From IMG/VR virus record IMGVR_UViG_3300032053_000099, positions 1 through 54,199 of that record: a DNA stretch of 54,199 bases; one strand, given 5' to 3'. Position 1 is the first letter of the stretch. Each line of letters opens with the position of its first letter. This document shows positions 2,835-49,815 of this stretch, piece after piece. This DNA comes from a virus. Its lineage: Duplodnaviria > Caudoviricetes. A program made the translations under genes and the position numbers. Below the pieces are notes generated by a model. The model was given only the letters and a program-made list of their open reading frames with translations, was not told where the DNA came from and searched no databases.

Positions 2835-3047
2835 GTGAAGCGATTTCCCAGACTACCGCGTGCCGACGACTTCCCTCCAGGTGCTTATGGTACGGACACC
2901 AACCGTCTCGTCCATATCTGGCCTGGGGCCAAGCAAGACAAGAAGCGCATCGTGATCCACTGGATGGACGGCCTAGACGCTGGTAAGCCTGTCTGGTGGG
3001 CCAAGAAAGACTTGGAGTTCTTACGTCCTATCGTGGAGGGGGCATGA
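2835..3047 (+). CDS. small hypothetical protein starting MKRFPRL
   Basis: GTG at 2835, one base after the upstream stop; stop overlaps the next start (ATGA). Confidence 0.6.
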   Translation: MKRFPRLPRADDFPPGAYGTDTNRLVHIWPGAKQDKKRIVIHWMDGLDAGKPVWWAKKDLEFLRPIVEGA

Positions 3048-3580
3048 AAGTCAAGGTAGTCGGTGGTAGTCTTATGCAGCAGGCGCGCATCAGGTACTAC
3101 TGCGAACAGTTAGTGCCTACAGCATTCCGTAAGCGCAAACTGTTGGGCTTTCTTGAGCGCAAGGGGTTTTCCTTGCTCGCAACAAGCGGGTCCTGCAAGG
3201 GGCTCTTCTCACGTGAGGGCATCAAGGTCTACCGCAGCCATGAATTGGGCTGGCGCAACTACCGCGATAAGGATGGCAAGCGTGGGTTCTTCCGTGCTGA
3301 CCAGGTCGCCATCCACGAACTGATGCACGGCGTCTGGAGTTTTGCGTTTGATGGTGGTATGAGGCAGTCTGTGTATGCCCTGCACGCTGTTGCAAACCCA
3401 CGATATTTCAATTACCCCGACGCTGTACGCCATCCTTCAGAGTGGTTCTGTGACCAGTTCCCGCGTGCCTTCTTATTCAAGAAGACATGCGACCCGGCAT
3501 TGGTACGTTTTCTCAGGGACTGGTACTTCAGCAGGTGCCTGCCTAACATCCGCTTGGAGCGGGATGAGGTAGGAAGATAG
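3044..3580 (+). CDS. putative zincin-like metallopeptidase
   Basis: AIHELMHGVW (HExxH); ATGA coupling. Confidence 0.55.
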   Translation: MKVKVVGGSLMQQARIRYYCEQLVPTAFRKRKLLGFLERKGFSLLATSGSCKGLFSREGIKVYRSHELGWRNYRDKDGKRGFFRADQVAIHELMHGVWSFAFDGGMRQSVYALHAVANPRYFNYPDAVRHPSEWFCDQFPRAFLFKKTCDPALVRFLRDWYFSRCLPNIRLERDEVGR

Positions 3581-3591
3581 AGGAGGAAATC

Positions 3592-4893
3592 ATGGCTGCA
3601 AAGTCAGCCCCGTATATCTGGAAGCAGTGCCCGTTCTGCCATAAGGACCTTCCGAAAGGACCCTTGCTGGAAGTGGTGGAGCCAAAGCCGATCATGCGCT
3701 ATCCGCGCTTGCTGGCTACCACGCCTGAACAGGAACGGACGGTGAAGATCATCGAAACCAAGTGCCGTCAGTTCGCCTGTCCTGGCCGTATCGTAAGCGT
3801 CCAGGCTGGCCCGATGGTCACGCAATACGACTTCAGCCCGGATCGCTTCACCCGCGTCCGGCAACTGAAGACCATGCACGAAGACCTTGCCATCGCTATC
3901 CCCGCTGAGGCCGTCACGGTGATGCGTATCCCTGGTCGCATCGCAATGGCCATCACGGTGCCTAATGTGGAGCGCAAGATCGTGTCGTTCAAAGAGTGCT
4001 TGCCCAACGTGGTGACGGTCCGCAACGAGCAGATCCTGCCGATCAACTTCGGTATGGACTCTGTCGGCAATCCTGTGGTCGAAGACCTTACTCGTATGCC
4101 GCACCTGCTCGTCGCGGGCAGTACCGGCAGTGGCAAGTCTGTCCTGCTCAACAACATCATCCTCAGCCTACTCCATGTTCGTAACGCCAAGCAGATGAGG
4201 ATGGTGGTGATCGACCCGAAGAGCGTCGAGTTATTCATGTACAAGGACGTTCCGCACCTGATGCGCCCGCCGGTATGCAGCGTCTTCGACGCCCTGGGAG
4301 CAATGGATGACGTCCTTCAGCACGTCCGCAAGCGCATGGTCATGCTGGAGACCTTCAAGGCCAAGAACCTGGCCGAGTACAACGCGGTCATGCCTGATGA
4401 GGAGCGTAAGCTGCCGTATATCGTTGTGGTCATTGACGAGATGGCCGACATCGTCTTGCAAGAGAAGAAAGCCTTCACGCAAGTGATGGCCCAGCTTTCC
4501 AGCCTGGCCCGCGCCTCGGGAGTCCACGTGATAGCGGCTACCCAGCGCCCGTCAGTAGACGTGCTGTCGGGCAAGATCAAAGTCAACTTCCCCGCTCGCG
4601 TCTGCTTCCGTGTCCCTGGTCATGCTGACAGTAAGACAGTGCTGGGCGTCGGCGCCCACGCTGAGCAGTTGATGGCGCGGGGCGATATGCTGTACTGCTC
4701 GCCAAACCTCCCTGGGTATCTGCGCCTTCACAGTCCGTTGGTTGAGAACTCCGACATCAACGAACAGCTTCTGCTGTCCTTGGAGTGCGGCCACTTCCTC
4801 CGTTGCCCAGCAGACGGTCCCCCGGCTGTACCGCAAGAGTCTGGTGCTCCGAAACTCGAACTCGTCGAGAGAAAGGAAAGGAAGGTGATGTGA
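3592..4893 (+). CDS. FtsK/SpoIIIE-family ATPase (motor only, no TM or gamma domain)
   Basis: PHLLVAGSTGSGKS Walker A, IDPK, VVVIDE Walker B, ARASGVH..ATQRP, GDML. Confidence 0.9.
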   Translation: MAAKSAPYIWKQCPFCHKDLPKGPLLEVVEPKPIMRYPRLLATTPEQERTVKIIETKCRQFACPGRIVSVQAGPMVTQYDFSPDRFTRVRQLKTMHEDLAIAIPAEAVTVMRIPGRIAMAITVPNVERKIVSFKECLPNVVTVRNEQILPINFGMDSVGNPVVEDLTRMPHLLVAGSTGSGKSVLLNNIILSLLHVRNAKQMRMVVIDPKSVELFMYKDVPHLMRPPVCSVFDALGAMDDVLQHVRKRMVMLETFKAKNLAEYNAVMPDEERKLPYIVVVIDEMADIVLQEKKAFTQVMAQLSSLARASGVHVIAATQRPSVDVLSGKIKVNFPARVCFRVPGHADSKTVLGVGAHAEQLMARGDMLYCSPNLPGYLRLHSPLVENSDINEQLLLSLECGHFLRCPADGPPAVPQESGAPKLELVERKERKVM

Positions 4894-5081
4894 TGCCGTT
4901 GTACAAGGAAATGCACCGCCGTCGTCGTATGAAGCTGCGGAGGGAATGGGAGTGGCTGAGGCACCTTCATTACCAAGGGGGCGAAGACGCTTCAGCCATA
5001 TTGATCGAGCCAAATCAGTGGGCCGTGAAGAAGTGGGATGCTGCCATAGTAGCAGCAAGGCTGAAAGGAGTACCTGTATGA
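4893..5081 (+). CDS. small hypothetical protein
   Basis: Start overlaps the upstream stop (TGATG) and its stop overlaps the ligase start (ATGA). Confidence 0.55.
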   Translation: MPLYKEMHRRRRMKLRREWEWLRHLHYQGGEDASAILIEPNQWAVKKWDAAIVAARLKGVPV

Positions 5082-8149: not shown

Positions 8150-8785
8150 ATGGACGAGAATCTGGAGAGGGCTTGGCGAGCCGAGCTATACCCTGGTCGC
8201 ATAGTTGCATATGACGTCTCGGGGCACTCTGGTGAGATACGCAGTCTACACTTCGGAAATGGCGAGCGCGATGCTCGGCCTTGGATAGACGTTTGGAATC
8301 TGAACCGTGGCTACGAGCGGGAAGAGTGGTCTCTGGCGCATATCGCTTTGCGCCGTCCAAGAACTTGCAAACGCTGGCCGCGCCCGTTCCGCTATGCCAG
8401 GCTGACGCCGACGTTTCATTGTCATTGCCCTAGTGGTAAACTGACTGTAAAGGGACCGCATGACGTTATATGTAATCGCTGTGGGTGCGCCATCGGAAGT
8501 GAAAGCTACCCTGACCGTTTCCAAGAAGCCAGCCGGAAGTTAGCGAAGGTGTATGGTCTGCCAGAGGCCAAGGCTTCCGAAAAGCGCATTCTGCCAGCAG
8601 GAGGGCGTGTGAAGCTGGTGGAATATGAGGAGCAGATATTCCGCCGCACATACGTCAAGGAATCGCCCAAAGAGGCGAAGCAATTCCGGGCCAAGGTAGA
8701 CGAGATCCTGAAGAGGGTGGACGCCGAAAGCAAAGCCAAAGGGTGGGGTCAGAAGAAACCTAAACCAAAGAGGTTAGGACGCTGA
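8150..8785 (+). CDS. hypothetical protein with Cys motifs
   Basis: 211 aa; CHC...CNRC; stop coupled to the next gene. Confidence 0.6.
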   Translation: MDENLERAWRAELYPGRIVAYDVSGHSGEIRSLHFGNGERDARPWIDVWNLNRGYEREEWSLAHIALRRPRTCKRWPRPFRYARLTPTFHCHCPSGKLTVKGPHDVICNRCGCAIGSESYPDRFQEASRKLAKVYGLPEAKASEKRILPAGGRVKLVEYEEQIFRRTYVKESPKEAKQFRAKVDEILKRVDAESKAKGWGQKKPKPKRLGR

Positions 8786-9369
8786 TGTACGATTACGGTG
8801 TAGCTCTGCGACGGTTCGACAAGCTGATACGCTGGACGGCGAGGAAGTATCAGGTGTTGGGCCACCATCATCTGATGCCCCAGGATATCCAGGCCGAAGG
8901 CTACCTGGTCCTGGTCCGCTGCTGCCAGCGTTTCCCGCCGTATCGTACTGGCTTCGCGCGCTTCTTCAAGCGTTCATGGTACAACCGCCTCAAGGACCTT
9001 AGCCGTTTCTCTCATCGTCAGGCCCGTGACGGCGTGACGGTTGAGATACCTGAGACGCTTGTCGATGAGCGCTTCCTCCCCAGCGATAACTTGCGTTCCC
9101 GCATTAGTGAACTGAAACATCGTGTATCACCATTGGCCTTCAAGTTCCTACGCTTATTCACTCAGCCCAACGAGGCTGTTACCCAAGCTGCCTGGCGAGA
9201 CTTCTGTCGCAAGAATAAGCTCGCAGGCTTGGGTATCAAGGTGACAGGGTTCAAGAAGTTTCGCATTCGGCCCAAGCATGTGCAGACGGTCCTTGGCATA
9301 CCGCCGGTCCTAGGCCGGAAGTTGCTGAGGGAACTTAAACAGTCAAACCAACAGCAAAAGGAGCGTTGA
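8785..9369 (+). CDS. sigma70 region-2-like phage transcription factor
   Basis: LIRWTARKY...QDIQAEG.L.L.RC..RF...F..F......NRLKD. Confidence 0.65.
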   Translation: MYDYGVALRRFDKLIRWTARKYQVLGHHHLMPQDIQAEGYLVLVRCCQRFPPYRTGFARFFKRSWYNRLKDLSRFSHRQARDGVTVEIPETLVDERFLPSDNLRSRISELKHRVSPLAFKFLRLFTQPNEAVTQAAWRDFCRKNKLAGLGIKVTGFKKFRIRPKHVQTVLGIPPVLGRKLLRELKQSNQQQKER

Positions 9370-9374
9370 CGCTT

Positions 9375-10433
9375 ATGATCAGTAAGAAGAAGAAGAAGGC
9401 CAACAAGACGGCCAAGGGCAGGGCCTCGTCAGACGATGAAGACGACGAGGAGGAAGAAACTCCTCGGAAGAAAAAGAAGCCAGCCGCCAAGTCGCCAAAG
9501 TCCAAGAAGCCCCGGGACGACGATGACGATGACAACGGCGACGATGAGTCCGACTCTGACTCCGAGGAAGAGGACGAGGGCGAAGACTCCGACGACGCCG
9601 ATTCCGACGAAGAGGAGGAAGAAGAGGAAGCCCCCAAGAAGAAGAAAAAGGCCAAGGACGACGACGACGAAGAGGAGGAAGAGGAGGAAGAGGAGGAAGA
9701 GGAGGAAGAAGACGAAGAGGAAGAAGCCCCCAAGAAGAAAAAGAAGAAGGCCAAGGACGAAGATGAAGAGGAAGAAGAGGAGGAAGAGGAGGAAGAGGAG
9801 GAAGAGGAGACCGGCCACACGCCTCGTGCCCCCTCGATCCCCGTCCCCAAGGGCATGGAAGACTGCTTCGGGCAGTTCTATGACCCCGATGTGACAGAGT
9901 GCAAGAAATGCACCGAGTCACCGCACTGCAAAAAGCTGATGGCTGCTGGCCGCAAGAAAGCCGAGGAGTCGGCCGGCAAGAAGGGAGACAAGGTGAAGAA
10001 AGTCAAGAAAGCCGAGAAGCCCGAAAGGGAGGAGAAAGTCAAGAAGCACCGTGAGGAAGACGACGAGGAAGAAGCCCCGAAGAAGGCCAGCAGTAGCGGG
10101 ATGGGTGACGTGCTCAAGAGTGCGCTCGCGCGTTCTAACTACAAGGCCGTCAAGGGCAAGCTGAACATGGTTTCTTCCTCAGCGTTGTACGTTACCATTG
10201 GCGGCAAGAAAGCGGCCTTCATCAACAAGGCGGGCACCGACGAGCCGAACGTCAGGCTCATCACCAGCACCTCGCCGAAGAAGCTCGGCCTGGAACTCTC
10301 GGATTGGGGCAAAACGAACAACGTCCGCGAGTACGTGTTCAAGGGCAACTACAAGCTCCTAGGCAAGGCCCTGGCCATCGCCTTCAAGGCCATCCGCAGA
10401 GAGCAGCGATCTGAATCCGAGGACGAAGACTAG
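9375..10433 (+). CDS. intrinsically disordered acidic/basic block protein with Cys4 motif and C-terminal globular domain
   Basis: Alternating poly-D/E and poly-K tracts, CFG...CKKC....HC, C-terminal domain paralogous to ORF 723. Confidence 0.85.
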   Translation: MISKKKKKANKTAKGRASSDDEDDEEEETPRKKKKPAAKSPKSKKPRDDDDDDNGDDESDSDSEEEDEGEDSDDADSDEEEEEEEAPKKKKKAKDDDDEEEEEEEEEEEEEEDEEEEAPKKKKKKAKDEDEEEEEEEEEEEEEEETGHTPRAPSIPVPKGMEDCFGQFYDPDVTECKKCTESPHCKKLMAAGRKKAEESAGKKGDKVKKVKKAEKPEREEKVKKHREEDDEEEAPKKASSSGMGDVLKSALARSNYKAVKGKLNMVSSSALYVTIGGKKAAFINKAGTDEPNVRLITSTSPKKLGLELSDWGKTNNVREYVFKGNYKLLGKALAIAFKAIRREQRSESEDED

Positions 10434-10458
10434 CCGACCGAACCCCAAGTGGCACGAG

Positions 10459-10488
10459 ACGGAGGGGCTTTTACAGCAGCCCCTCCGT
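10459..10488 (+). terminator. stable hairpin between the IDR gene and the modification cluster
   Basis: ACGGAGGGGCT / AGCCCCTCCGT 11 bp inverted repeat; no clear U-tract. Confidence 0.45.
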
Positions 10489-10508
10489 ACCTCCCTCAAG
10501 GAACTGCC

Positions 10509-11486
10509 ATGAGATACCCAATAGAGCAGCCTCCGCCTTTTGCAGTGCAGATTGAACTGACCGAGGGGTGCAATCTGCGGTGCCCTTTCTGTGCTATATC
10601 TAGTATACGAACCTCTCAAAGCATTTACAAGTTCTTAACTGTCGAGAATGCCAGACGTATCGCGGATGGGATTGGTGACGCCGGTTGGACGCCGCGCATA
10701 GAGTTCGGGATGCATGGTGAACCTACCATCAATCCAAACTGCTGCGAGATCATCTACATATTCCGCAGGCGTCTTCCGGGTAGTCTGATGCTCTTGGAGT
10801 CCAATGGGACAGGCTTCGCCAGTAACACCATTTCCCGTCTGTTCGATGCTTTTGCTGCTGGGCTGGATAACCTGGCAATAGAGGACTATAGGCACGCTAA
10901 GATGTGTGCGCGGATACGCTCTAGGGCCTCGGAACACCCGGTAGACTTTAGTGAGGTTGGCGTTTTCATCTATGACTACCCCCGGGACCCAGAGGGCAAT
11001 CCCCATCGACGTGGCAAAAACAAGAAGCTGATATTCCTGGCCGACCCCACGGTCGCAAAGATCGGCACACACTCGCAGGTACATAACTCAGCGGGTTTGG
11101 CCAAGCCACCTCTGACGAAGCCTCCCACGACCCGTTGTGCGAAACCATTCAGGGAGCTAGCGATTCGGTGGGACGGCAATGTGGCTCTGTGCTGCAATGA
11201 CTGGCGAGGTTGGTACAAGATAGGCAATGTGTTACAGACTCCGGTCGAGGAGCTTTGGCAGCACAGCGCGTTCAATGCTGCGAGATTGAAGCTGTACCAC
11301 GGCCAGCGCGACTTCGGTCCCTGTAACGGTTGCGACGCTCGTAGCTACCGTGTGGGCCTATTGCCCGACAAGTTTGGTAAGGCGAAGCTTCCGGAGCCGG
11401 ATGATGGCACGTTGAGAACGATCAAGCGGGCGCTGTCTGGTGGAACGTACACCCTCCCGGTTCTTAGAGAATGGGAGGAGAGCTGA
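10509..11486 (+). CDS. radical SAM protein with SPASM/twitch domain
   Basis: ELTEGCNLRCPFC (CxxxCxxC), GEP, C.KPF...I.WDG.V.LCC.D..., PCNGC. Confidence 0.92.
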   Translation: MRYPIEQPPPFAVQIELTEGCNLRCPFCAISSIRTSQSIYKFLTVENARRIADGIGDAGWTPRIEFGMHGEPTINPNCCEIIYIFRRRLPGSLMLLESNGTGFASNTISRLFDAFAAGLDNLAIEDYRHAKMCARIRSRASEHPVDFSEVGVFIYDYPRDPEGNPHRRGKNKKLIFLADPTVAKIGTHSQVHNSAGLAKPPLTKPPTTRCAKPFRELAIRWDGNVALCCNDWRGWYKIGNVLQTPVEELWQHSAFNAARLKLYHGQRDFGPCNGCDARSYRVGLLPDKFGKAKLPEPDDGTLRTIKRALSGGTYTLPVLREWEES

Positions 11487-12289
11487 TGAAGCACCCCGAC
11501 CTGAAGATTTACATGGCAGTGCTCAGCCATGGACGCCCGGATAGCGTCAAAGAGGTTGAAGGGTATCTCGGCTGTGAGGCCACATGGTATGTTGGGGAAG
11601 GTGAGTCCAGCAGCTATCGCCGTCATGGAGCTGAGCGTGTGGTGGCAGCCGGAAACCTGCCGGATAGTAGGAACACAGCGTTGGAAGACGCGTGGAAGTA
11701 CGGCTTCACGTGTGTTCAGTGCTCTGATGACTGCCGTCGCTTTAGCATAGCGACAGAGCGTATGGTCAACTTGACGGCCTTGACAACGGCCATCCTCATC
11801 AAGTCGGCGATGGAGGCTGTGGGAGGGGTATATCTGGGAGGAGGGAACTCTACAAGCAACCCCTACATGGCTATCGGTCTTAGGACTGGTAGCAAGCTGC
11901 CCCCACAGCCTTCGGCGCAGCTCATTAGCTACAATCGCCTGGTTCTGGGAGACTTCTCCGTCGTGAGGCCCTGCGGCATATTCTTTGAAGACGACATCCT
12001 CGTCAAAGAGGACTATGCCTACACGTTGAAGCACCTCGTGGCTTTCGGTCGTGTTGTCCGTTGCAACTATATCCTACAGGACTTCCGTCACAGAGCCAAC
12101 CTCGGGGGTGCCAATCTGTGGCGCAATGAAGGTGCTGAGCAGGACGCCTGCAAGAAGATCCTAGAGCGCTGGCCGGGTGTGATACGGCCAGCGAAGCCTA
12201 AGTCCGGGTCTAGCTTCCCAGAGCTGATGATCACGTGGAAGCCCGAATTGCGGGACCACCTTCTGCCTGCGAGGTTTGCTAGGATATGA
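11486..12289 (+). CDS. GT-A glycosyltransferase, TET/JBP-associated (TAGT/GREB1/JGT-like)
   Basis: LSHGRP, SRN..LE.A, Q.SDD, KEDY..TL.H, N.GG pattern typical of that family; sits in a modification cluster. Confidence 0.7.
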   Translation: MKHPDLKIYMAVLSHGRPDSVKEVEGYLGCEATWYVGEGESSSYRRHGAERVVAAGNLPDSRNTALEDAWKYGFTCVQCSDDCRRFSIATERMVNLTALTTAILIKSAMEAVGGVYLGGGNSTSNPYMAIGLRTGSKLPPQPSAQLISYNRLVLGDFSVVRPCGIFFEDDILVKEDYAYTLKHLVAFGRVVRCNYILQDFRHRANLGGANLWRNEGAEQDACKKILERWPGVIRPAKPKSGSSFPELMITWKPELRDHLLPARFARI

Positions 12290-13203
12290 ATGTCACAGCA
12301 GCCGTGCTTCATGTGAATCCCACGAATCGTTGGTCCAGCGCTCCAACGGTACGTATCGCTAGATTTGTAGCTGACGCGCTTGGGATACCACTCTTGTGTG
12401 ATGAGGATTCATGCCACGCCAATCGCAACACTAAGTTTGATGTTCTATTTGTGAAGTTTGGAGTGCTGCGGTTCTGTGCGTATCGGGACATCGTCTTTCA
12501 GGTGTACCAGAAGGCAGATTTGATCATCAACCTGGAAAATGACTACGCATTCAAGCCGGACCCAAGGCTTCTCAAGCTGAACCCAAGCTATACCGTCTGG
12601 AGCACAGTGCCCAAGAACTGTGTGGAGGGCGGGCGTTATATCAATTGGAACAAGGCTTCCTGGATTCAAGGGATTAAGCCATCAAAGCATAAGCATTGGG
12701 ACGTCTTGTATCATGGGCGATGGCGCGATGACCGAGAGGCCCTGTTTGCCAGGTACTTCGATACGCCGAGCATCACAGTCAGCGCGCATTCGCGTAGCCA
12801 GCGGAAGTTCCTAGAGCAATACCCTCGTGTGACGCTTGTGCCCCAATTGAAGGACATCACTGAACTGAGGCACGCTGATCTAGGGCTGTATCTTGAAGAT
12901 GTGAAATCCAGTACGCTCTACTGTTCACCGGCACAACGCTTCTATGAGTGCGTGCAGGCTGGCGTGCCTGTGATATTCGACAGTGCGTGCATCCGTACGT
13001 TCTATACTGCGGGGTACGGTGATGTAAGCAATTTCGCTGTCGGGGGTAGTGCGTCTGCACTGAGGATGCTGCGGAGAGCTCCAAAAATTGTAGAGGCACA
13101 AGCCAAGTGGTACCGTGACTACGGTGCTGAACTGAGGCATGAACTGATGGAAGCACTGGCGGAAGAGGGTCTCAAGATTGGGGTGCGAAGATGGCCACGC
13201 TGA
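12286..13203 (+). CDS. GT-B glycosyltransferase resembling T4 DNA beta-glucosyltransferase
   Basis: DVLYHGRWRDDRE..F..YFDT and RFYECVQAGVPVIFD resemble T4 BGT segments as recalled (DVIYGGSFRSGQRE...FLFDT; RVWE..A....LID). Confidence 0.65.
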   Translation: MNVTAAVLHVNPTNRWSSAPTVRIARFVADALGIPLLCDEDSCHANRNTKFDVLFVKFGVLRFCAYRDIVFQVYQKADLIINLENDYAFKPDPRLLKLNPSYTVWSTVPKNCVEGGRYINWNKASWIQGIKPSKHKHWDVLYHGRWRDDREALFARYFDTPSITVSAHSRSQRKFLEQYPRVTLVPQLKDITELRHADLGLYLEDVKSSTLYCSPAQRFYECVQAGVPVIFDSACIRTFYTAGYGDVSNFAVGGSASALRMLRRAPKIVEAQAKWYRDYGAELRHELMEALAEEGLKIGVRRWPR

Positions 13204-14168
13204 TTGACAGGAAACCTTGGCTGCATCTGCCAATCGTCCCACTTATCCAGGAACACCTGGACCAGTTCTACCAGTTCGTCTACGAGCGGCACATGGTCTG
13301 GTTCCGCCGCTTCGCTCTGAAACTGTCTCCACCATGGACAGCAAATCGTTGGCTTCGGGACTACAAGTTCACGAACGTCTACCGTGAACTGGATCGTGGC
13401 ACAGCTTGGCTGATGAGCCATATCCTGAATCCTACTGCACTCGCAGCGGGCAGCCAACACAATCTCTTGTGGCAGGTGGTGTTGTACCGCGTCCTAAACC
13501 GTGTGGAGACGTTCGAGGCTGTCGGTATCCCGTCGTATTCCAAGTGGGAAGCTGACAAGGATATGTTCCGTAGCAACCTGTATGAGTACAAGCGTCGCCA
13601 TGGTCATGTGTTTACTAATGCTCACCTGACGGTTCCTGTCAACCGGCTCGGTGGTGACAAGCTCGCGGCGTATCTGAAAGGGCTGGATGCCTTGCATAAG
13701 CTGGTCCCCAAGCTGTGGATGGAGATAGCAGCCGCTGAAACCATGGAGCAGGTCTTTCGTGCTTTGCAACTGGTGCCATACGTCGGCCCCTTCATAGCCT
13801 ACGAGATCACCGTCGATCTCACATACGGCAAGTTGATACCGTTCACCGAGGACGATTTCGTGAATGCTGGCCCCGGTTGCAAGGTGGGCATCAAGCTGAT
13901 ATTCCCAGAGCGTAGCAAGAAGGACGAGCTTGTGGCAGCGATCCACGAACTGCGGGATAGCCAACAGTACCACTTCCAGCGTCTTAGCTTGGACTTCCCA
14001 TATCTCAACGGGAAGCCGCTGTCGCTGCGCAACATCGAGCACAGTTTGTGTGAATTTTGTAAGATGTGGAAGATCACCCATGGCGTCGGCAAGGCTCGGA
14101 TGCTGTTCAAGCCCAAGTCAACCAACCCCTACGAATCTGCTGCTGGTCAACTTCCCCTGTCATTCTAG
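13191..14168 (+). CDS. aGPT-Pplase1 / 5-hmdU DNA kinase helical-domain family (thymidine hypermodification)
   Basis: F..ERH.VW.RR...PPWT....L..YKFTNVYRELDRGT, GPF.AYE...DL, GPG...G, IEH.LCEF.K. Confidence 0.85.
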   Translation: MATLIDRKPWLHLPIVPLIQEHLDQFYQFVYERHMVWFRRFALKLSPPWTANRWLRDYKFTNVYRELDRGTAWLMSHILNPTALAAGSQHNLLWQVVLYRVLNRVETFEAVGIPSYSKWEADKDMFRSNLYEYKRRHGHVFTNAHLTVPVNRLGGDKLAAYLKGLDALHKLVPKLWMEIAAAETMEQVFRALQLVPYVGPFIAYEITVDLTYGKLIPFTEDDFVNAGPGCKVGIKLIFPERSKKDELVAAIHELRDSQQYHFQRLSLDFPYLNGKPLSLRNIEHSLCEFCKMWKITHGVGKARMLFKPKSTNPYESAAGQLPLSF

Positions 14169-14194
14169 CGTTTAATTCAATTGGAGGCAATGCA

Positions 14195-15854: not shown

Positions 15855-15872
15855 AGTAGAGGGGGAACAAAC

Positions 15873-21842: not shown

Positions 21843-22903
21843 TCATCCGATTCCCAAGAGTGCCCCCTAGCATCAGCGCCAGTTCTATAGCGAAGATAGT
21901 TGGCCGGGTGTCTCGTAGCTTTGGCAAACGCCATAAGCCCACCGCCGACAGTGGGGAAGTAGTAACGACGTTGGGTCATTCCATATTTGCTATCCCCCGC
22001 GAGTACATCCGTACTGGCATCACGCCTTTGGACTGCATCATCAGTGGCGGTAGAGGGTTCCCGACTGGTATCATAGAGATATATGGACCGGAAGGCTCCG
22101 GGAAGTCTGCTGTCATGGAGATGACGCTTGCCTCGGCGCAACGGCAGGGCTATTTCGCTGGTATGTTCCAGATGGAGTACGCCCTAGAGATGCAGCGGGC
22201 TAGGACCGTTGGCTTGGACGAGGAGTCGCTACTGTTGTTCGACGGAGCAGAGACGATCGAAGATGTTTACGACTGCATCCGTACATCAGTAGCTGCCATC
22301 CGTGACGAGGATGAGAGTACACCCATCGTATTCGGTTGGGATACAATAGCATCCACGCCGACTCGTGTAGAATTGGAAGCTAAGAAGGGCTTGGAATCTG
22401 GTGGCATGGGCCAGGGAGCGCGTATGATGTCCAGCCTGTTCCGTAAACTCTGTCGCTTCCTGTTCAAGAACAAGGTGTGCCTCATCTGTGTCAACCAGAC
22501 ACGGATGTCTTTCGGTGGCTACCATCCAACTGAGGTTACATATGGCGGGAAGGCATTGCGGTATTACGCTTGGGTTCGCTGTCGGATCAAGTACAAAGAC
22601 GCAATCGTATCTGGGGACCAGAACGTGGGCATGATGAGCGAGCTCAAGGTCTACAAGAACAAGGTGTTCCCGCCGTTGCGAACGTGCCGTATACCCATAT
22701 TCTGGAGCCACGGGATCGACAACGCCAGAGCGACTTGGGAGTACTCCTTGGATCATGGCCTTATAGAGCGCCGAGGAACGAGCTATCGGTGCCTGGGTGT
22801 GCCTGTCACCCGGAAGACGTTCCCCAGGTTCTACATAACAAATCGTAGGGAGCTGAACTCCAGGCTGGCGCGGCTGTCACGGAAGGAGGGTATCGAGCCA
22901 TGA
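21839..22903 (+). CDS. recA: RecA/UvsX recombinase
   Basis: TG...LD, EIYGPEGSGKS, E.AL, WDTIA, AR.MS, NQ.R, GGKAL.YYA, KNKV.PP. Confidence 0.95.
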   Translation: MIIRFPRVPPSISASSIAKIVGRVSRSFGKRHKPTADSGEVVTTLGHSIFAIPREYIRTGITPLDCIISGGRGFPTGIIEIYGPEGSGKSAVMEMTLASAQRQGYFAGMFQMEYALEMQRARTVGLDEESLLLFDGAETIEDVYDCIRTSVAAIRDEDESTPIVFGWDTIASTPTRVELEAKKGLESGGMGQGARMMSSLFRKLCRFLFKNKVCLICVNQTRMSFGGYHPTEVTYGGKALRYYAWVRCRIKYKDAIVSGDQNVGMMSELKVYKNKVFPPLRTCRIPIFWSHGIDNARATWEYSLDHGLIERRGTSYRCLGVPVTRKTFPRFYITNRRELNSRLARLSRKEGIEP

Positions 22904-23847: not shown

Positions 23848-24224
23848 AGCGTTTTCCAAGGACCTTGCGGCGATACCCAAGAGGGCTAGTCTTAGGAGTC
23901 TATGGTGATTGGCGGCGATACCCTCGTCTGCTTCGCCATCCTAGGTTATCTAGTAAGCAAAGTATAACGTATTGCCCATGTGGACGCCCGAGCAACTTGA
24001 TCATGCAGTACATGCAGCCCCGTGACAAGCGTGGCCGGGTCATGATTGGTGCTGGCTATCTCCCTATGGGCTTCTGTTGTGAGGCTTGTAGGGACTGCCA
24101 ACTATTCCACGATAGACTGGAAGTGACGGCACGTGTTCTTGCTTGGAACAAGACAGGCAGTGCATCCCTGTATGGCGAGAGGGTGACAGAGCCTGAAGTA
24201 CATTTCCGTAGAAAGGTGGTCTGA
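23844..24224 (+). CDS. protein with four tandem R[FYH]PR motifs and Cys pairs
   Basis: MKRFPRTLRRYPRG...RRYPRLLRHPRL, CPCG, CCEAC. Confidence 0.7.
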   Translation: MKRFPRTLRRYPRGLVLGVYGDWRRYPRLLRHPRLSSKQSITYCPCGRPSNLIMQYMQPRDKRGRVMIGAGYLPMGFCCEACRDCQLFHDRLEVTARVLAWNKTGSASLYGERVTEPEVHFRRKVV

Positions 24225-24700
24225 TGCAGCATCAGAGATTCTGGCGGCGGCGTGATGACTACCAGTCGCTTCTACGCGAGGCCAGACAGCTATTTCCCAA
24301 CCTACTGAAGCATGTCAAGCCCGAGCGTGTTCTACTGGTCTCATTCACTGGTCGGAAGTGTAGGTTCATCGCTAGGGTGCGTGCTAACAAGAACCCCTGG
24401 CGTCTAGCCCTACCGCAGTACGACTATGCCATAGAGTTCTGGGCAACGCAATTCGATGAAACCAGCCATGCCTATAAGGTGTTCGTTGTAGTCCACGAAC
24501 TGCTGCACATCCCTAGAGGCGGATTCCTATCAGGTGGCCCATCACACTTGAGGCTGCTGGATCACGACATACAAGACTTCCTATTTCTGCGCAGTCTGTA
24601 TGGGCTTCACCTGGAAGGCGTGGATGACGTGCTGAAGGGGGAGAAGGCTCTGCTCAAGAAAGGGCCGAGGAGATTTCCTAGGCAGTTCATCATAAAGTAG
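24224..24700 (+). CDS. putative phage metallopeptidase
   Basis: Y.IEF...F.......VVHELLHI.....L.DHDIQDF. Confidence 0.7.
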   Translation: MQHQRFWRRRDDYQSLLREARQLFPNLLKHVKPERVLLVSFTGRKCRFIARVRANKNPWRLALPQYDYAIEFWATQFDETSHAYKVFVVVHELLHIPRGGFLSGGPSHLRLLDHDIQDFLFLRSLYGLHLEGVDDVLKGEKALLKKGPRRFPRQFIIK

Positions 24701-31755: not shown

Positions 31756-32394
31756 ATGCCCAAGAGGATCCTCAGGTTTCCGCGTCTGAAGAATAGCCTC
31801 ACCAAGACGGAACGCTTCGAGATCATGGTGAAGATGGGCATCCCTCCACGAGGCTACGACGGGAAGCTGACCGACAAGCAGATGTCAATCATCCGCCGTG
31901 TGGCATCTGGGGAGAGCGTACGCAAAGCCTGTGACAAGCTCCATATCGAGACCGACACGTTCTACCGCTGGCGACGCTGCCACAAGCTGTTCGCCAGGAA
32001 GTTGGTCAGGCTGACACAGAGCCACTTAGAGAAGCTGGATGACACCCTCGACGGCGCACTGGTTCGCTCGGCTCGTGTCGTGGAAGAGAACCTGGACAAC
32101 GAGGATCCATATCTACGTGGGCATACAGCACATGCTGTACTGAAAGGCCGAGGCGTGTTCAAGTCTAGTGTCCAGACTAAGGCTGACGTTCACGTCGATG
32201 GTATCGTTCAGCACGATCACGACGTTACCATGAAGCTGCCGCCGGGTTTGCAGCAGGCATTCATGGAGGCCATACTCCGGGTCGCAGTGACTGGCGGTTC
32301 TGTAAGCAAGGTGCTGCCAGAGTCAGAATTGCCTGTCATAGATATTCTAGCTGAAGAGGCTCCTAAGCTGCTGCCTGCTTCGGCCGAGGGTTAA
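31756..32394 (+). CDS. terminase small subunit-like HTH protein
   Basis: LT.KQ.......G.SV..AC..L.I...TFYRW HTH; upstream of TerL. Confidence 0.65.
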   Translation: MPKRILRFPRLKNSLTKTERFEIMVKMGIPPRGYDGKLTDKQMSIIRRVASGESVRKACDKLHIETDTFYRWRRCHKLFARKLVRLTQSHLEKLDDTLDGALVRSARVVEENLDNEDPYLRGHTAHAVLKGRGVFKSSVQTKADVHVDGIVQHDHDVTMKLPPGLQQAFMEAILRVAVTGGSVSKVLPESELPVIDILAEEAPKLLPASAEG

Positions 32395-32676: not shown

Positions 32677-32698
32677 TTCGAATTTAGCAGGAGGCAAC

Positions 32699-38053: not shown

Positions 38054-38434
38054 ATGGCTTACCGTGGAATCCCGTCAATCGCTTTGAACACAGCAACCGA
38101 TCAGCGACTGAGAGAGTCTTCTCGGTTGAGAGAGTTCGGTGTCAAGGGCATGAAATGGGGCGTGAGGAAGCAAACAGAGTTCAAGGATCGCCATGCACGC
38201 CTCGCTGACCGCATAAGCGACCTCATGGGCAAAGCCACTGAGTGGGATAGCCCTAAGCACAATAAAGCCTACTCAGCCTTAGAAAAGGCAGACATGCTTC
38301 ATGGACGTACTGCCGACGCCATGGACAGGGGGGATTTTGAGAAAGCCCACAGCTTGTTGGGCCGAGCCAAGGCAGCAACAGTTAGGGCGGCTGCTCACAT
38401 GCGGGGCGAGAGACCAATGGTGCCCAACTACTAA
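38054..38434 (+). CDS. GMKWG-tagged protein A (candidate internal head protein)
   Basis: Leader MAYRGIPSIALNTATDQRLRESSRLREFGVKGMKWGVRK. Confidence 0.8.
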   Translation: MAYRGIPSIALNTATDQRLRESSRLREFGVKGMKWGVRKQTEFKDRHARLADRISDLMGKATEWDSPKHNKAYSALEKADMLHGRTADAMDRGDFEKAHSLLGRAKAATVRAAAHMRGERPMVPNY

Positions 38435-39093: not shown

Positions 39094-41808
39094 ATGTCTG
39101 CTCACGTCGCTAACCCTGAGAATGCGCCTCACACAAAGGCCAGAGCGATGCCCGTTTCTACGCCGAAGCGAGCAGCCGCCGTCTCCAAGATCCAGCAAGC
39201 CGGAGACAAGTTCAATACTGGCACGGAGTACAAGCAAGACGACAACGTGCTCCTGACGTTGCTGCCTACTGCCAAGTTCCCTGTCTCTCTCGTCCATGCT
39301 CCTGGCATTACTTCCCCGCTAACGCCCGAAGCAGTCCTGGGCCTCACGGAGCCGGACAAAGCGGCGCAAGGCGACCATATCAACTATCTGAGGGAAGCCG
39401 CCGTCGTCGCTGACATTGACGCCAAGCTGATAGTCAGTGAGCCCAGCGAGATGCGCCGTGGCTGCTTCCGTGAAGTGCATTTCAAGTCCTTGGACGAGTG
39501 GATGAACAGTAAGCACTACCGGAAGCTACGCGAATCCCGGCTGAGGGGTCATGCCATACTGGAAGCCGTTCGCAGACAGGAACGGGAGCAGGATGCTCAG
39601 TTACGAGAATTTAAGCAAGAGGACGAAGACGGTGTATCAGAAACTCCCTACCAGGATACACATCCGGGCATCCGGCTCGACCCTCGCATTGCAGCCAGGT
39701 TCCGGGAAGCTGATGGGCCTATTATAAACCGGCTGAGAGAAGCCATTGGTGACCAGGCGGATATCTTTGCCCAGGACTCTGACCAGACAGCGGTGTCAGC
39801 AGACGCCTGGAGCAGCGGGCGAGATATTGAGTTCACGCCATTGATGGCAGGCCCATACAACAAGCAACTGTATTTCGCGGACTACCTCACGATGCACGCC
39901 CTTGCTCATGAAGCCGCCAATCACAACCCTATTGCCAAGCGTATAGCACAGGTCATCCCCCAGTTCGTGTTGGGCAAATCTGTCAAAGCTACCGTGATGA
40001 AGGCAGCCTTGCCGACGGGCAAGAAGGTCAAGCAGGGGAACAAAGTAGTAGACCAGGTCGTTGATTACAAGCGCAAATCACAAGCTATCCTAGATGAGCA
40101 TTGGCACAAGAACAGGATGCTGATACGTTCCAAGTCCATCCTACGTGACTTAGTGGTATTTGGAGAACAATTCATTCGCTACTTCAATGCACCGTGGGGC
40201 TTGAAGATCAGGCAATTGGACCCTAGCACCGTTTGGGAAATCGTAACGGACGTAGATGACTTGGAAACAGTTTTCTGGTTGCATCAACAGTACCCCACCC
40301 GTTTCCTCTGGATGACCGATGTTGGTGTTCCTACCATCAAGTACATCATCCGTCAGGTGCCCGGACCGCTATTCTACCACATGAAGATCAACGCCTCGGC
40401 CGGTGAGGTCCGTGGCCGAAGCGAATTATTTGCTATACTTGGTTGGCTCAAGAGGCTGAAGGAGTTCTCGAGTGATAGAGTGGTTCGGAACAAAGTCGCT
40501 AACCTGTTCTGTCTGGACATCTCAGTGGAAGGTGGGCCGCAGGACGTCGAGAACGTCCGCGCTCAGTTTGTCACTCCGCCGACTCCAGGCAGCTTCTTCA
40601 TACACAACAAGGCCGCTGAAATCCAGGGCATCCGTGCCGAGATAGGCGCTGGTGATGTTACCAGCGATTGGGAGATGCTACTGACCGTCATATCTGCTGG
40701 CGCAGGTATCAGCAAGGAATACTTGGGTATCTCCTCAGGTGGGAGCAAGGCTGGCGCTTTAGTAGGCACAGAGCCAGACATCAAGACGTTTGAAACATAC
40801 CAGGAGATCATGGAGGACTTCTACCAGCAGGATGCCCAGCGCGTGTTCGACAGATCCAAGGAAATGGGCCGCTTGCCAAAGGGCCTCGATGTCCAGGTGG
40901 AGATGACTTACCCGGCTATCGCCGAGGAGAACCGCAGTGAGAAGCTGAAGGACATCGCCTTCGAAGAGAGCATGAGCCATATGTCGCATCGGCGAGCGGC
41001 TTCTATGGCTACCAAGGAGCTTGGCATCACCGAGTACGACTACGACGACGAGCAGCGGCAAATCGCCGAGGAAGACGCCCAGAAGCAATTGATGATCAAC
41101 CAGGCTTACGGCCAGCTTGTGAAAGGCGCTGACAGCAGCAAGACAGCGCAAGGTGGCTCGGCGGCAGGTGCTCAGGGCGGACAAGGCGGGCAGGGTGCAA
41201 CGTCTGGTGGTATGGGCAAGACTGCCAAGGCTCCTACCAGCACGCCGACGGGCGAAAGCAAGAAAGGCTGGCAAGGGCGGGACCCCCGCGAAGTGCGCGA
41301 AGCCATATTGCATGAGACTCACCGGCTGCGTGTATCCCGGAAAGGGCTGAGGGAGTCTCAGGAAATGGGTGTTAAGGGAATGAAGTGGGGAGAGCAGCAT
41401 CCTAGCTCTATTGGTAAGCGGTTCAGCCGTCATGACGTCGGGAACTTTGATTGGAAGGCGCGTCATCTTGGTACAAACGCTGATGAGGAGCCTACAGCAG
41501 AGGATATTGAAAAGCTAGTGACTGACAACACAGTCTTGACGCCGACGAAGCAGCAACTCGATGGGTTCCTCCAATCTGCCAGGTATGCGTACCAACAGAC
41601 GCACAAACAGAAAGAAGCCTCCAATCTCTCCGTCGGTCGTAAGCGCCAGCTTCAACCCAATCGCCAGCAGCTATCGCAGTTCACTCCAAAGCGGGTGCGT
41701 GACCAGAAGAGCATGGACCGCAACGACATCGTAACACGCGGTCGCCGTGCCGTCCATGGCAAGTACAACGAAGCCAAATCCCGCCGTCGCTTTCCAAGAC
41801 TCAAATAG
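39094..41808 (+). CDS. portal protein with long N- and C-terminal extensions
   Basis: NPIAKRI......VLG, RD..VFGE.F, LDP, H.KIN......RG.S.L portal-like core; downstream of TerL. Confidence 0.75.
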   Translation: MSAHVANPENAPHTKARAMPVSTPKRAAAVSKIQQAGDKFNTGTEYKQDDNVLLTLLPTAKFPVSLVHAPGITSPLTPEAVLGLTEPDKAAQGDHINYLREAAVVADIDAKLIVSEPSEMRRGCFREVHFKSLDEWMNSKHYRKLRESRLRGHAILEAVRRQEREQDAQLREFKQEDEDGVSETPYQDTHPGIRLDPRIAARFREADGPIINRLREAIGDQADIFAQDSDQTAVSADAWSSGRDIEFTPLMAGPYNKQLYFADYLTMHALAHEAANHNPIAKRIAQVIPQFVLGKSVKATVMKAALPTGKKVKQGNKVVDQVVDYKRKSQAILDEHWHKNRMLIRSKSILRDLVVFGEQFIRYFNAPWGLKIRQLDPSTVWEIVTDVDDLETVFWLHQQYPTRFLWMTDVGVPTIKYIIRQVPGPLFYHMKINASAGEVRGRSELFAILGWLKRLKEFSSDRVVRNKVANLFCLDISVEGGPQDVENVRAQFVTPPTPGSFFIHNKAAEIQGIRAEIGAGDVTSDWEMLLTVISAGAGISKEYLGISSGGSKAGALVGTEPDIKTFETYQEIMEDFYQQDAQRVFDRSKEMGRLPKGLDVQVEMTYPAIAEENRSEKLKDIAFEESMSHMSHRRAASMATKELGITEYDYDDEQRQIAEEDAQKQLMINQAYGQLVKGADSSKTAQGGSAAGAQGGQGGQGATSGGMGKTAKAPTSTPTGESKKGWQGRDPREVREAILHETHRLRVSRKGLRESQEMGVKGMKWGEQHPSSIGKRFSRHDVGNFDWKARHLGTNADEEPTAEDIEKLVTDNTVLTPTKQQLDGFLQSARYAYQQTHKQKEASNLSVGRKRQLQPNRQQLSQFTPKRVRDQKSMDRNDIVTRGRRAVHGKYNEAKSRRRFPRLK

Positions 41809-48051: not shown

Positions 48052-48273
48052 ATGCCAACTAAGAAGCGCAGTAAGAGGTCTAGGTTTCCACGTGTTCTCT
48101 TGCGTCATCCGAGAGAGCAGACGAAGCTGGACATCGTACAATCACGTCTTGCCAAAGACACTCTCTATCAGAAGCTCTTATCTGCCAGAGAGGAAGCCAC
48201 AACTCGCAGGCTGGCTGATGTCATAGAGCACATCAATGCGTCTCTGATGTATCTGCGGCTCTGGTACGTCTGA
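48052..48273 (+). CDS. small basic protein with RFPR and RHPR motifs
   Basis: AAGGAG SD; MPTKKRSKRSRFPRVLLRHPRE. Confidence 0.6.
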   Translation: MPTKKRSKRSRFPRVLLRHPREQTKLDIVQSRLAKDTLYQKLLSAREEATTRRLADVIEHINASLMYLRLWYV

Positions 48274-48461: not shown

Positions 48462-48857
48462 ATGAAAGCTCACATCTGTGGAAACTGCGGTGGTATCCTT
48501 CCCAATCATGGTCTCGGCTGCAAATACAAGAAGGCTGACAGGAAGCGCAGTGGATGGATAGGAAAGAAGCCTGAGCATGGGAGGAAGAAAGTCCTTCTCT
48601 GCGTCATTTCCAAGGACGACAAGGACATCGGTGTCCTCGTATGCAGCACGAACTTGCTTCAGCTTCCTTTCTGCAAGACAGAGTATCGGACTGCTGAAGC
48701 CAAGCACGGCGGAGCCACTCTGGCATGGCAGACAGGAAGCATCAGAATCGAAGTCATATCTGTCTTCTCATGGGACAGATGGAACGCAGCAAGACTTCGC
48801 AACACTCTTATCTATCATGGCCTGAGAACACCACATCACAGGGCAGTCATTTCATAA
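48462..48857 (+). CDS. hypothetical protein
   Basis: AAGGAG SD; CxxC..H..C. Confidence 0.55.
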   Translation: MKAHICGNCGGILPNHGLGCKYKKADRKRSGWIGKKPEHGRKKVLLCVISKDDKDIGVLVCSTNLLQLPFCKTEYRTAEAKHGGATLAWQTGSIRIEVISVFSWDRWNAARLRNTLIYHGLRTPHHRAVIS

Positions 48858-48981
48858 CAAGCATACACTCCAGTCACAGCGTAGATAGAGTCTACGTCCT
48901 GCCTCATATCTTCAGATTGCGCGATGTCATTCCACTTACTAAGATCACCCCGAACCGTTTTACAGTGAGACAGATTGAGCC

Positions 48982-49165
48982 GGGGGGAGGGGGTTCCTTA
49001 CAAGCGCTACGTTCGATGAAATTTCTCTATCTTTCTGCGGTTTTGAGAGAAACCGTCGCGGCCTACGAAATCTGTTAAACTGCCGTTGCAAGCGTGAAAA
49101 GTTTTCTCTATCTTTCTACGTAAGCCTCTGAAAATTTGAGAAATTCTAGGGCTTTCTATCTTTCT
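48982..49165. repeat. G-run followed by three TCTATCTTTCT direct repeats in an AT-richer non-coding tract
   Basis: G-run 48982-48993; repeats at about 49022, 49103 and 49153. Confidence 0.55.
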
Positions 49166-49191
49166 GCAGTTTAGCGGCGTTTCATTCAACC

Positions 49192-49815
49192 ATGAAAGTG
49201 CTCATAGCTTGCGAGTTCAGCGGCGTCGTTCGGGACGCTTTCAGGAACTGTGGACATGATGCCGTCAGTTGTGATCTTTTGCCCACCGAGCGTCCGGGGC
49301 CTCACTTCCAGTGCGACATTCGGGAACTAGACTTAGAGCGATACGACCTCGTAATAGCGCATCCTCCATGTACTCACCTCTGTTGCAGCGGCGCGGCATG
49401 GTTCGAACATAAGATGCGTGTGAGATGGTACGCTCTAGAGTTCATAAAGTTCTTCTTTGAGTGTCCGGCTCCCATGGTGGCGATAGAGAATCCGGTAGGC
49501 ATCATATCCACGGTATTCCGTAAGCCAGACCAGATCATTCAGCCTTACGAGTTCGGTGATCCCTACAGCAAAGCAACGTGTCTATGGCTCAAGGGCCTGC
49601 CACTATTACAGCCTACGAACATCGTTGATAGGGGAGAGCGGTGGGTGAGTGCGACAGGATCAGGCAAGTCGATGGCTAGGTGGTACATTAGTGCATCGTC
49701 TAAGGAACGGGGCGTGACGTTTCCAGGTATCGCTGAGGCTATGGCTGTTCAGTGGACGCCTAGATTCAGACGCGCTTATCTGTTCCCAAGGTTCCACTTA
49801 TTTCCCAGGTTTTGA
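49192..49815 (+). CDS. short phage DNA cytosine-C5-methyltransferase-like protein
   Basis: VLIACEFSG.VR.AF...GH...SCD, DL.IAHPPCT, IENP, QP..FG....K.TCLW. Confidence 0.8.
   Translation: MKVLIACEFSGVVRDAFRNCGHDAVSCDLLPTERPGPHFQCDIRELDLERYDLVIAHPPCTHLCCSGAAWFEHKMRVRWYALEFIKFFFECPAPMVAIENPVGIISTVFRKPDQIIQPYEFGDPYSKATCLWLKGLPLLQPTNIVDRGERWVSATGSGKSMARWYISASSKERGVTFPGIAEAMAVQWTPRFRRAYLFPRFHLFPRF

Follow-up and report, generated by a model that had tools for sequence, protein, structure and literature searches.

AT-hooks are among the described peptides that come closest to the motif dealt with here, and passages of PMC4615771, PMC11354804 and PMC7279267 portray them as a tiny Arg/Pro core in disordered basic regions, which is auxiliary to other DNA-binding domains and is present in three copies in HMGA. 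Our subject is a four-residue peptide tag, R[FYW]PR and mostly RFPR, that recurs on unrelated proteins of an uncultured phage known from a 54,199-base stretch of DNA (IMG/VR record IMGVR_UViG_3300032053_000099; CheckV completeness estimate 43%). This whole stretch is called the window throughout. The tag is real, sharply defined and clade-wide, and it sits on DNA-handling proteins. Like the AT-hook it is very short, is built on Arg and Pro, lies in disordered basic regions, and occurs singly beside DNA-binding domains and as arrays in small proteins. In contrast, the AT-hook core contains Gly (G-R-P), whereas RFPR has an invariant aromatic residue and belongs to a phage clade, and we infer its binding to DNA. 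The AT-hook core itself was not recovered in the proteins studied: RGPR occurred 2 times versus 2.28 expected, and Gly was not favoured at position 2.

A short arm of the Arg-Pro-Arg type also precedes the helix-turn-helix (HTH) of Hin-type recombinases, where it forms the N-terminal minor-groove arm, and the N-terminal arm of the TerS-like protein of the window resembles it. The RFPR arm, however, is common to dozens of unrelated proteins and has an obligatory Phe. Motifs that dock proteins to a hub, namely the clamp-binding motif (QL[SD]LF), the PCNA-interacting peptide (PIP) box (QxxLxxFF), the AlkB homologue 2 PCNA-interacting motif (APIM, [K/R]-[F/Y/W]-[L/I/V/A]-[L/I/V/A]-[K/R]) and those of the partners of the C-terminal tip of single-stranded DNA-binding protein (SSB), share with RFPR that one short motif is found at the N-terminus, the C-terminus or in a linker of many unrelated DNA-transaction proteins. 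The first two are led by Gln. However, RFPR matches none of these consensuses, and the usual clients (polymerase, ligase, flap nuclease) lack it. Twin-arginine translocation (Tat) signals consist of an N-terminal RR followed by a hydrophobic stretch. The capsid-targeting sequence of T4 and the cargo-loading peptides of encapsulins are short terminal tags on unrelated cargo as well, but the RFPR carriers, the portal excepted, are replication, recombination, modification and nuclease proteins rather than virion cargo, and the near-portal proteins of the window bear a different motif, GxKGMKWG (DUF7211). Full-text literature searches (RFPR with phage; short linear motif with phage terms; relevance judged by title and abstract, supplements lying outside the searches) gave no description of the tag among the papers listed.

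Copies of the motif in the window

A first-pass annotation of the window, made from its letters, had described the R-[FYW]-P-R tag at the termini of about ten unrelated proteins and had stated that no equivalent was known, which agrees with our literature searches. We confirmed this observation and found it to be stronger than first stated: every copy that had been listed is present at its place on the + strand, variants included, and the tag is indeed common to unrelated replication, recombination, DNA-modification and packaging proteins. The + strand holds essentially all long open reading frames (ORFs) of the window. Genes were called crudely, as a greedy set of ORFs that run from the first start codon on one strand, so that distances from N-termini are upper bounds. 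The copies and their degenerate variants are as follows.

2841..2852, + strand: RFPR (KVKRFPRLPR), near the N-terminus of the small ORF 2796/2835-3047; no Pfam family
3697..3708, + strand: RYPR (MRYPRL), ORF 3592-4893 with FtsK alpha/motor domains PF01580 and PF17854; linker after a CPxC zinc-ribbon-like segment
8372..8383, + strand: RWPR (KRWPRPFRYAR), ORF 8150-8785, directly upstream of a Cys/His cluster
12272..12286, + strand: degenerate variant RFARI-stop, C-terminus of ORF 11471-12289; no family found
13189..13200, + strand: RWPR (RRWPR-stop), last four residues of ORF 12286-13203; no family; inside the thymidine-hypermodification cluster
21848..21859, + strand: RFPR (MIIRFPRV), residues 4-7 of the RecA/UvsX-like ORF 21839-22903; flexible arm before helix 14-29
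23850..23945 (copies at 23850, 23871, 23916 and 23934), + strand: array of RFPR, RYPR, RYPR and RHPR, residues 3, 10, 25 and 31 of ORF 23844-24224
24671..24682, + strand: RFPR (RRFPRQFIIK-stop), five residues from the C-terminus of the HExxH metallopeptidase ORF 24224-24700 (PF18894)
31774..31785, + strand: RFPR (MPKRILRFPRLK), residues 7-10 of the TerS-like ORF 31756-32394; N-terminal arm before the HTH (residues 42-75)
41788..41799, + strand: RFPR (RRRFPRLK-stop), two residues from the C-terminus of the 904-aa portal ORF 39094-41808
48082..48114 (copies at 48082 and 48103), + strand: RFPR and RHPR, residues 11 and 18 of the small ORF 48052-48273
49780..49812, + strand: degenerate variant LFPRFHLFPRF-stop, C-terminus of the DNA methyltransferase ORF 49192-49815 (phrog_757)

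A further variant, KTFPRF, sits at residue 326 of RecA. The reading MKRFPRL at 2835 requires GTG at 2835 as start codon. ORF 23844-24224 encodes a small basic protein, in which the N-terminal motif array is followed by a Cys-rich segment, and its stop overlaps the start of the metallopeptidase gene. Some details of the first-pass annotation did not hold. The FtsK-like copy, which had been placed near the N-terminus, is a linker copy, because a conserved CPxC segment, kept in 5/5 orthologues, precedes the motif. Neither Pfam nor PHROGs gave any support for calling 12286-13203 BGT-like or 11471-12289 TAGT. An RHPRF at 6008 falls in the ATP-dependent ligase ORF and resembles ligase motif VI; we do not regard it as a copy of the tag and left it out of the counts.

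Enrichment and sequence requirements of the motif

The background for the window came from 300 within-protein shuffles of its 93 greedy + strand ORFs, each 50 aa or longer and together 17,535 aa. R[FYW]PR occurred 12 times (shuffle mean 0.50, maximum 4), and nine copies lay at most 20 residues from a terminus (shuffle mean 0.16, maximum 2), a zone that holds only 21% of the ORF residues. Both the frequency and the terminal bias that had been claimed are therefore well above the shuffled background. The comparison was extended to five relatives analysed as whole records (40.9-104.0 kb, 30-72% complete, portals 45-61% identical), all of them incomplete metagenomic contigs, with 200 shuffles per genome; G000 is the window.

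G000: 12 total, 9 terminal; shuffle means 0.56 total, 0.15 terminal
G001: 20 total, 15 terminal; shuffle means 0.50 total, 0.08 terminal
G002: 10 total, 6 terminal; shuffle means 0.40 total, 0.11 terminal
G003: 19 total, 12 terminal; shuffle means 0.70 total, 0.11 terminal
G004: 16 total, 9 terminal; shuffle means 0.42 total, 0.10 terminal
G005: 7 total, 5 terminal; shuffle means 0.42 total, 0.12 terminal

No shuffle in any of the six genomes exceeded 4 total or 2 terminal copies. For RFPR alone, 71 copies compare with a composition expectation of 1.19 (143,909 aa), which corresponds to an approximately 60-fold excess.

These copies are not written in one way at the DNA level. In the six genomes, RFPR is encoded with all six Arg codons at both Arg positions, with TTT (35) and TTC (36) for Phe, and with all four Pro codons. 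The window copies switch between AGR and CGN among their Arg codons, and the 45 bases on either side of them share nothing. Since the codons vary and the DNA flanks are unrelated, selection acts on the RFPR peptide, and the protein-level conservation first proposed is borne out. Of the matches to a degenerate DNA pattern for RFPR, 71 are in frame with a called ORF, another 17 are on that strand but outside such a frame, and 12 are on the opposite strand. Among the 17, 11 lie at the end of uncalled ORFs of 118-240 codons that are conserved or syntenic; nine of these 11 copies belong to the +1-frame ORFs over the gene of the 8150 family.

The 84 copies of the six genomes comprise 71 RFPR, 10 RYPR and 3 RWPR. 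Arg is not exchangeable for Lys (KFPR 0, RFPK 1), and His is a minor alternative at position 2 (RHPR 7 versus 0.68 expected), so that this position reads F 71, Y 10, H 7 and W 3. With R, F and R fixed, position 3 was Pro in 71 cases; Ala, Leu and Val were found at most 5 times each, Ile 6 times, and no substitute more than 6 times. Ile, Val or Pro occupies position -2 in 56/84 copies, position -1 is mostly R, K, L or M, and at position +1 Leu (23), Glu (15) and Thr (8) prevail, with Glu at +2 in 10/84. The extended consensus is basic-x-[I/V/P]-[R/K/L/M]-R-F-P-R-[L/E/T]. Flanks carry a positive net charge in 65/84 copies (zero in 11, negative in 8), and the upstream 10 residues average +1.73 versus +0.76 at random positions of the same proteins.

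Placement is U-shaped: 27 copies lie at most 20 residues from the N-terminus, 29 at most 20 from the C-terminus and 28 elsewhere, and in 6/84 the motif is the very C-terminus of the called ORF. Carriers make up 64/663 called ORFs; 15/64 have two or more copies, and 11/20 gaps between copies measure 6-8 residues. Small proteins bear motif arrays, and several small proteins have one copy at either end. In an AlphaFold model of RecA (47 clade sequences, mean predicted local distance difference test score (pLDDT) 88), residues 1-10 average a pLDDT of 56, and there is no secondary structure before helix 14-29. The metallopeptidase model gave a tail pLDDT of 29-40 and placed this tail nowhere with confidence. 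Together with RecA alignments to other phages, which begin at residue 21 or later, i.e. past the motif, these low-pLDDT arms agree with the earlier statement that most copies lie outside the conserved folds. Thus, RFPR has what is generally expected of a short linear motif: a four-residue core, preferences from -2 to +1, a flexible region, unrelated folds and retention in orthologues.

Other consensuses were ruled out on this basis. APIM differs at position 3, which is Pro, and at position 4, which is Arg by definition. For the clamp-binding motif and the PIP box, Gln is among the six commonest residues only at position -1 (6/84), and no Leu/Phe pattern follows the motif. A Tat signal disagrees with the 29/84 copies close to the C-terminus and with the polar sequence after the N-terminal examples. 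Because the AT-hook core fails and the APIM, clamp, PIP and Tat consensuses mismatch, we consider RFPR a linear targeting or hook motif outside any named family.

Conservation in related phages

A portal search yielded 42 proteins, 29 of which carry R[FYW]PR, always in their C-terminal part when it is present. An alignment of 17 of these portals retrieved 41 viral loci. Eight loci with portals 46-61% identical contained 22 coding-strand copies, 15 of them terminal, versus two coding-strand copies (near-duplicate loci, non-terminal) and two on the other strand in the other 33 loci (portals 29-39% identical). PhiJL001 and Epa5, which encode 5-hydroxymethyldeoxyuridine (5-hmdU) kinase-type enzymes, showed no excess in their first 50 kb (1 and 0 coding-strand copies). 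The same picture was obtained in a wider RecA search with 51 proteins 39-51% identical and 59 cellular RecAs of about 30-35%: the motif lies within the first 45 residues of 43/51 clade RecAs versus 0/59 cellular ones. The remaining 8/51 comprise two incomplete sequences, two with RHPR and four full-length ones with neither form, one of the latter on an 89.5-kb contig. As had been expected, the distant portal relatives and the two other thymidine-modifying phages lack the excess.

Orthologues of the relatives keep the motif, as the first annotation would have it. It was retained in 6/6 RecAs, every copy on the N-terminal arm, in 6/6 TerS-like proteins, again N-terminal, in 5/5 FtsK-like proteins, in 5/6 metallopeptidases, five residues from the C-terminus, and in 5/6 portals. 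The Cys/His-cluster family of ORF 8150 has it in 5/5, usually as a KR[YW]PRPxRFPR doublet, the 5-hmdU kinase helical-domain protein in 3/5 (C-terminal), and the family directly upstream of the DnaB-like helicase in 3/3, plus an uncalled fourth member. A motif-bearing small ORF syntenic with 23844-24224, with copies at one or both ends, was found in G001, G003, G004 and G005 and is uncalled in G002; in the window and in these four relatives the small motif-rich ORF adjoins or overlaps the peptidase gene. The motif is specific to this clade and retained in its orthologues. The carriers belong to one clade of uncultured phages of roughly 100-130 kb with genes of a thymidine hypermodification pathway.

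Megablast of the window against 50,697 deposited phage records gave no match. With tblastn against deposited phages, the window portal matched one record at 26% identity, and the window RecA had 1,227 matches, every one below 60% identity; searches with the portal, RecA, TerL and an HMUDK-like protein gave distant relatives only, at most 33% identical among the matches listed. Thus, there is no close deposited relative and, therefore, no cultured relative at hand. Related-locus searches with single proteins as query returned no loci, whereas the portal alignment did retrieve them, and a profile search of genome contigs with this alignment added one distant locus of a metagenome-assembled genome (31% identity), which gave no hint of the host.

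In four relatives, a conserved +1-frame ORF overlaps the 3' part of the 8150-family gene (window counterpart 8150-8785) and ends in one to three RFPR copies. Coordinates are those of the coding strand.

58639-59127: +1-frame ORF of G001
52693-53049: +1-frame ORF of G003
23840-24259: +1-frame ORF of G004
345-740: +1-frame ORF of G005

The main frame beneath it is low-complexity basic sequence. The window has a single in-frame ORF, whose C-terminal part resembles the +1-frame product by eye (tblastn weak, E 0.011). Judged from these sequences, the arrangement could be a +1 frameshift or an overlapping gene.

Proteins with and without the motif

Pfam and PHROGs searches covered 41 window proteins and 20 proteins of relatives (61 in total). 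Carriers with a Pfam match in the window include RecA, FtsK/SpoIIIE, TerS with its HTH and the portal, the latter with a score below the curated cut-off. In relatives, the motif was found in an endonuclease VII with a C-terminal doublet, in three EndoVII-NUMOD3 homing-type nucleases (linker, residue 81), in an HNH-AP2 nuclease (AP2 at residues 102-151, motif at 161, 10 residues after AP2), in two 5-hmdU DNA kinase (HMUD1-type) proteins with an N-terminal copy and in an amino acid:DNA transferase. Some carriers resemble 5-hmdU DNA kinase/pyrophosphorylase enzymes. Four more have weak matches below the Pfam cut-offs: SAP-like (motif at both ends), PDDEXK-like, radical SAM and PIG-L-like. When one EndoVII-NUMOD3 carrier was used as tblastn query, only relatives of about 28% identity were found among the matches listed. 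All family-matched carriers except the metallopeptidase have an evident DNA substrate, although four of the matches are weak. The motif adjoins DNA-binding modules: it lies before the TerS HTH, between EndoVII and NUMOD3, after AP2 and on both sides of the SAP-like match. It also adjoins Cys clusters in the FtsK, 8150 and 23844 families. No copy was found in the sigma-like proteins, in either terminase ORF or in the nucleotide-level enzymes.

Possible functions of the motif

We tentatively favour the reading that RFPR is an auxiliary nucleic-acid hook, which would contact DNA directly in the manner of an AT-hook; ligand and binding mode are proposed by analogy. This view is based on carriers that work on DNA, on the closeness of the motif to DNA-binding modules, on an obligatory Arg for which Lys is no substitute, on basic flanks and on arrays in small basic proteins. 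The carrier list and the siting beside DNA-binding modules fit DNA as the common 'hub' at least as well as a protein hub. RFPR would then be a portable short linear motif on flexible ends and linkers of proteins acting on phage DNA. The two arginines and the kinked Phe-Pro would grip DNA, probably from the minor groove, and enzymes, nucleases, recombinase, terminase and portal would gain affinity or dwell time from the hook. The small multi-copy proteins may bridge or coat DNA, as AT-hook proteins do. Arginine-bearing short peptide arms that contact the minor groove are an established class in the relevant part of PMC3950669, and according to passages of PMC5889632 and PMC8989533, thymidine hypermodification acts on DNA after replication. 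Bulky thymine adducts would fill the major groove, and this crowding may be the reason why the clade uses a groove-independent hook.

Several points weigh against such a hook. In place of the Gly of the AT-hook, RFPR has a bulky, invariant Phe, for which a narrow groove may be too tight, and Glu at +1 (15/84) and +2 (10/84) is of no use for contacts with DNA. Many core DNA enzymes do without the motif, namely the PolA-UDG polymerase, SSB, the UvsY-like protein, the 5'-3' exonuclease, the Mre11/Rad50-like proteins, the DnaB-like protein, primase, the superfamily 2 helicase, ligase, the TopoIB fusion and the HU-like protein, and the metallopeptidase, which carries it, is without known DNA role. 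Finally, strict invariance over four residues is equally typical of docking into a protein pocket.

A serious alternative, only somewhat less likely, is that RFPR docks its carriers to one protein hub of phage or host origin on or near phage DNA. Such a hub might be a platform of the replisome or SSB type, or it might guard the entry to a compartment or condensate. A strictly invariant core with preferences at -2 and +1 on disordered termini, convergent placement on unrelated folds, retention in orthologues and tolerance of neighbouring acidic residues are what such docking would produce. SSB and clamp interactomes include recombination, helicase-neighbour and modification proteins, as do the carriers. 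Two acidic proteins are also encoded in the clade, an SSB whose long acidic tail has DEPF at its end and another protein that contains poly-E tracts. However, no receptor candidate or clamp was named among the 61 proteins scanned, the classical clients (with the flap exonuclease among them) are untagged, and mobile homing-type nucleases are tagged. In addition, gaps of 6-8 residues between tandem copies would be short for two sites on an oligomer, and the C-terminal tail of the portal should, judging from general portal architecture, face the capsid interior. The interpretation of the first-pass annotation was therefore partly supported. That the tag is a selected, clade-conserved linear signal on flexible arms stood up; its assignment to a protein hub such as a clamp, a protease adaptor or a compartment stays a proposal, and no clamp was named in the proteins scanned.

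We regard it as unlikely that RFPR reads the clade's own hypermodified thymidine, its arginines pairing with the appended groups and Phe-Pro packing against the adduct, and in this way steers the carriers (recombinase, modification enzymes, homing nucleases, terminase and portal) to phage rather than host DNA. If true, a peptide 'self-DNA address' would have evolved together with DNA modification.

It appears quite improbable that the tag is recognized by the HExxH metallopeptidase or another protease, so that DNA-bound tagged proteins are cleaved or cleared, e.g. before packaging, with the upstream multi-copy ORF as pseudo-substrate or regulator. Phe-Pro-Arg is a classical P3-P1 site of Arg-specific proteases, the peptidase itself is tagged in 5/6 genomes, and the motif-rich small ORF is its neighbour in the window and in G001, G003, G004 and G005. 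On the other hand, the 6/84 copies that form the very C-terminus leave nothing for post-Arg cleavage to remove, N-terminal copies would free a few residues only, and TerS and portal, which are needed late, stay tagged. The peptidase model does not fold its own tail back confidently. A complex prediction that paired the first 144 residues of the metallopeptidase (alignment of 6) with the first 50 of ORF 23844 scored 0.01 versus a mark of 0.32, which speaks neither for nor against binding.

Even less credit can be given to a target of an Arg/Pro post-translational modifying enzyme or to a nascent-chain or translation signal at gene ends. What speaks for these options is confined to the obligatory Arg and Pro and to the bias towards termini; no enzyme of such specificity was named among the families found by Pfam and PHROGs. 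Anything from 0 to more than 10 residues separates the motif from the stop, and copies in internal linkers are conserved too, so that a termination or initiation signal fits poorly. A DNA- or RNA-level signal at gene junctions that is read as RFPR, or chance from an Arg/Pro-rich composition, is of negligible probability: genes on one strand with many copies near their boundaries would suit such a signal, but it was rejected on the varied codons (AGR versus CGN, at each position) and unrelated flanks, the in-frame copies outnumber the others, and the excess over composition-matched shuffles is 24- to 60-fold.

If the hook or another targeting role is confirmed, a phage would have a targeting peptide that spans its proteome, with recombination, DNA modification, homing nucleases and packaging linked by a single tag of four residues. 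Such a tag would provide a simple transferable handle to send proteins to phage DNA or to a phage hub, aid function prediction for the many small tagged ORFs and open a route to study how proteins cope with heavily modified DNA. Given the sharpness of the motif (about 60-fold excess, Lys virtually excluded), tests with peptides and point mutants should read clearly.

Other features of the window and of related genomes

According to Pfam, PHROGs and a protein atlas, the window encodes an FtsK/SpoIIIE-like ATPase, an ATP-dependent ligase, an HU-like protein, RecA, a 5'-3' exonuclease, the HExxH metallopeptidase, Mre11/Rad50-like proteins, sigma-like and late-activator-like proteins, the TerS-like HTH protein, the portal and a DNA methyltransferase. 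The thymidine-hypermodification cluster (10449-17299) comprises a radical SAM/SPASM protein, the 5-hmdU DNA kinase helical-domain protein, a thymidylate-synthase-like protein and an NAD-dependent epimerase. A Yersinia phage match of the kinase helical-domain protein is annotated as alpha-glutamyl/putrescinyl thymine pyrophosphorylase. Next, at 17286-19907, comes a DNA polymerase of family A that has a uracil-DNA glycosylase (UDG) domain at its N-terminus as well as a 3'-5' exonuclease domain; UDG-fused phage polymerases of such kind are described in the preprint 10.1101/2025.03.26.645540. Between the polymerase and SSB, a small helical ORF (19934-20371) appears UvsY-like by language-model features and predicted structure, and on these models it would complete a set that resembles UvsY-SSB-RecA of T4.

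The poly-D/E proteins, which had been put forward as candidate partners of the tag, do exist, but nothing ties either of them to the motif. SSB (20495-21664) has a long acidic tail with DEPF as its end, and ORF 9366-10433 carries a net charge of -36. Their acidic tracts have in common a 143-base repeat of 92% identity (9564-9706 and 21410-21552), which encodes poly-Glu/Asp runs interrupted by APKKKKKAK. An atlas search with the C-terminal part of ORF 9366-10433 gave no usable match.

A transfer-messenger RNA (tmRNA) of the permuted type that ARAGORN called at 32364-32718 overlaps the end of the TerS-like ORF and small ORFs and is probably a false call. The large terminase is split into two ORFs, an ATPase part (33119-34354) and a Terminase_6C nuclease part (37389-38042), which are separated in the window by about 3 kb with an InPase-TopoIB fusion, a PI3/PI4-kinase-like protein and an 87-aa ORF. 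The two halves are separate ORFs in 6/6 genomes, with a different intervening ORF in the four relatives looked at. Five window proteins around the terminase and portal genes carry a second short motif, LRE-x-G-[VI]-K-G-M-K-W-G (Pfam DUF7211, 25 positions).

34359-35906: motif at aa 204
35903-37147: motif at aa 72
38054-38434: motif at aa 29
38453-39082: motif at aa 29
39094-41808 (portal): motif at aa 759

Its carriers include the InPase-TopoIB fusion and the PI3/PI4-kinase-like protein, and four more were found in relatives (one in G003, two in G004, one in G005). This motif may mark virion- or portal-associated proteins. The clade portals (P0001-P0037) share an N-terminal V-N-N-P-T-N-A-P motif and are extended at the C-terminus by a long variable stretch, in which more short blocks are conserved, and two portal homologues (P0034, P0036) contain the intein-splicing domain PF14890.

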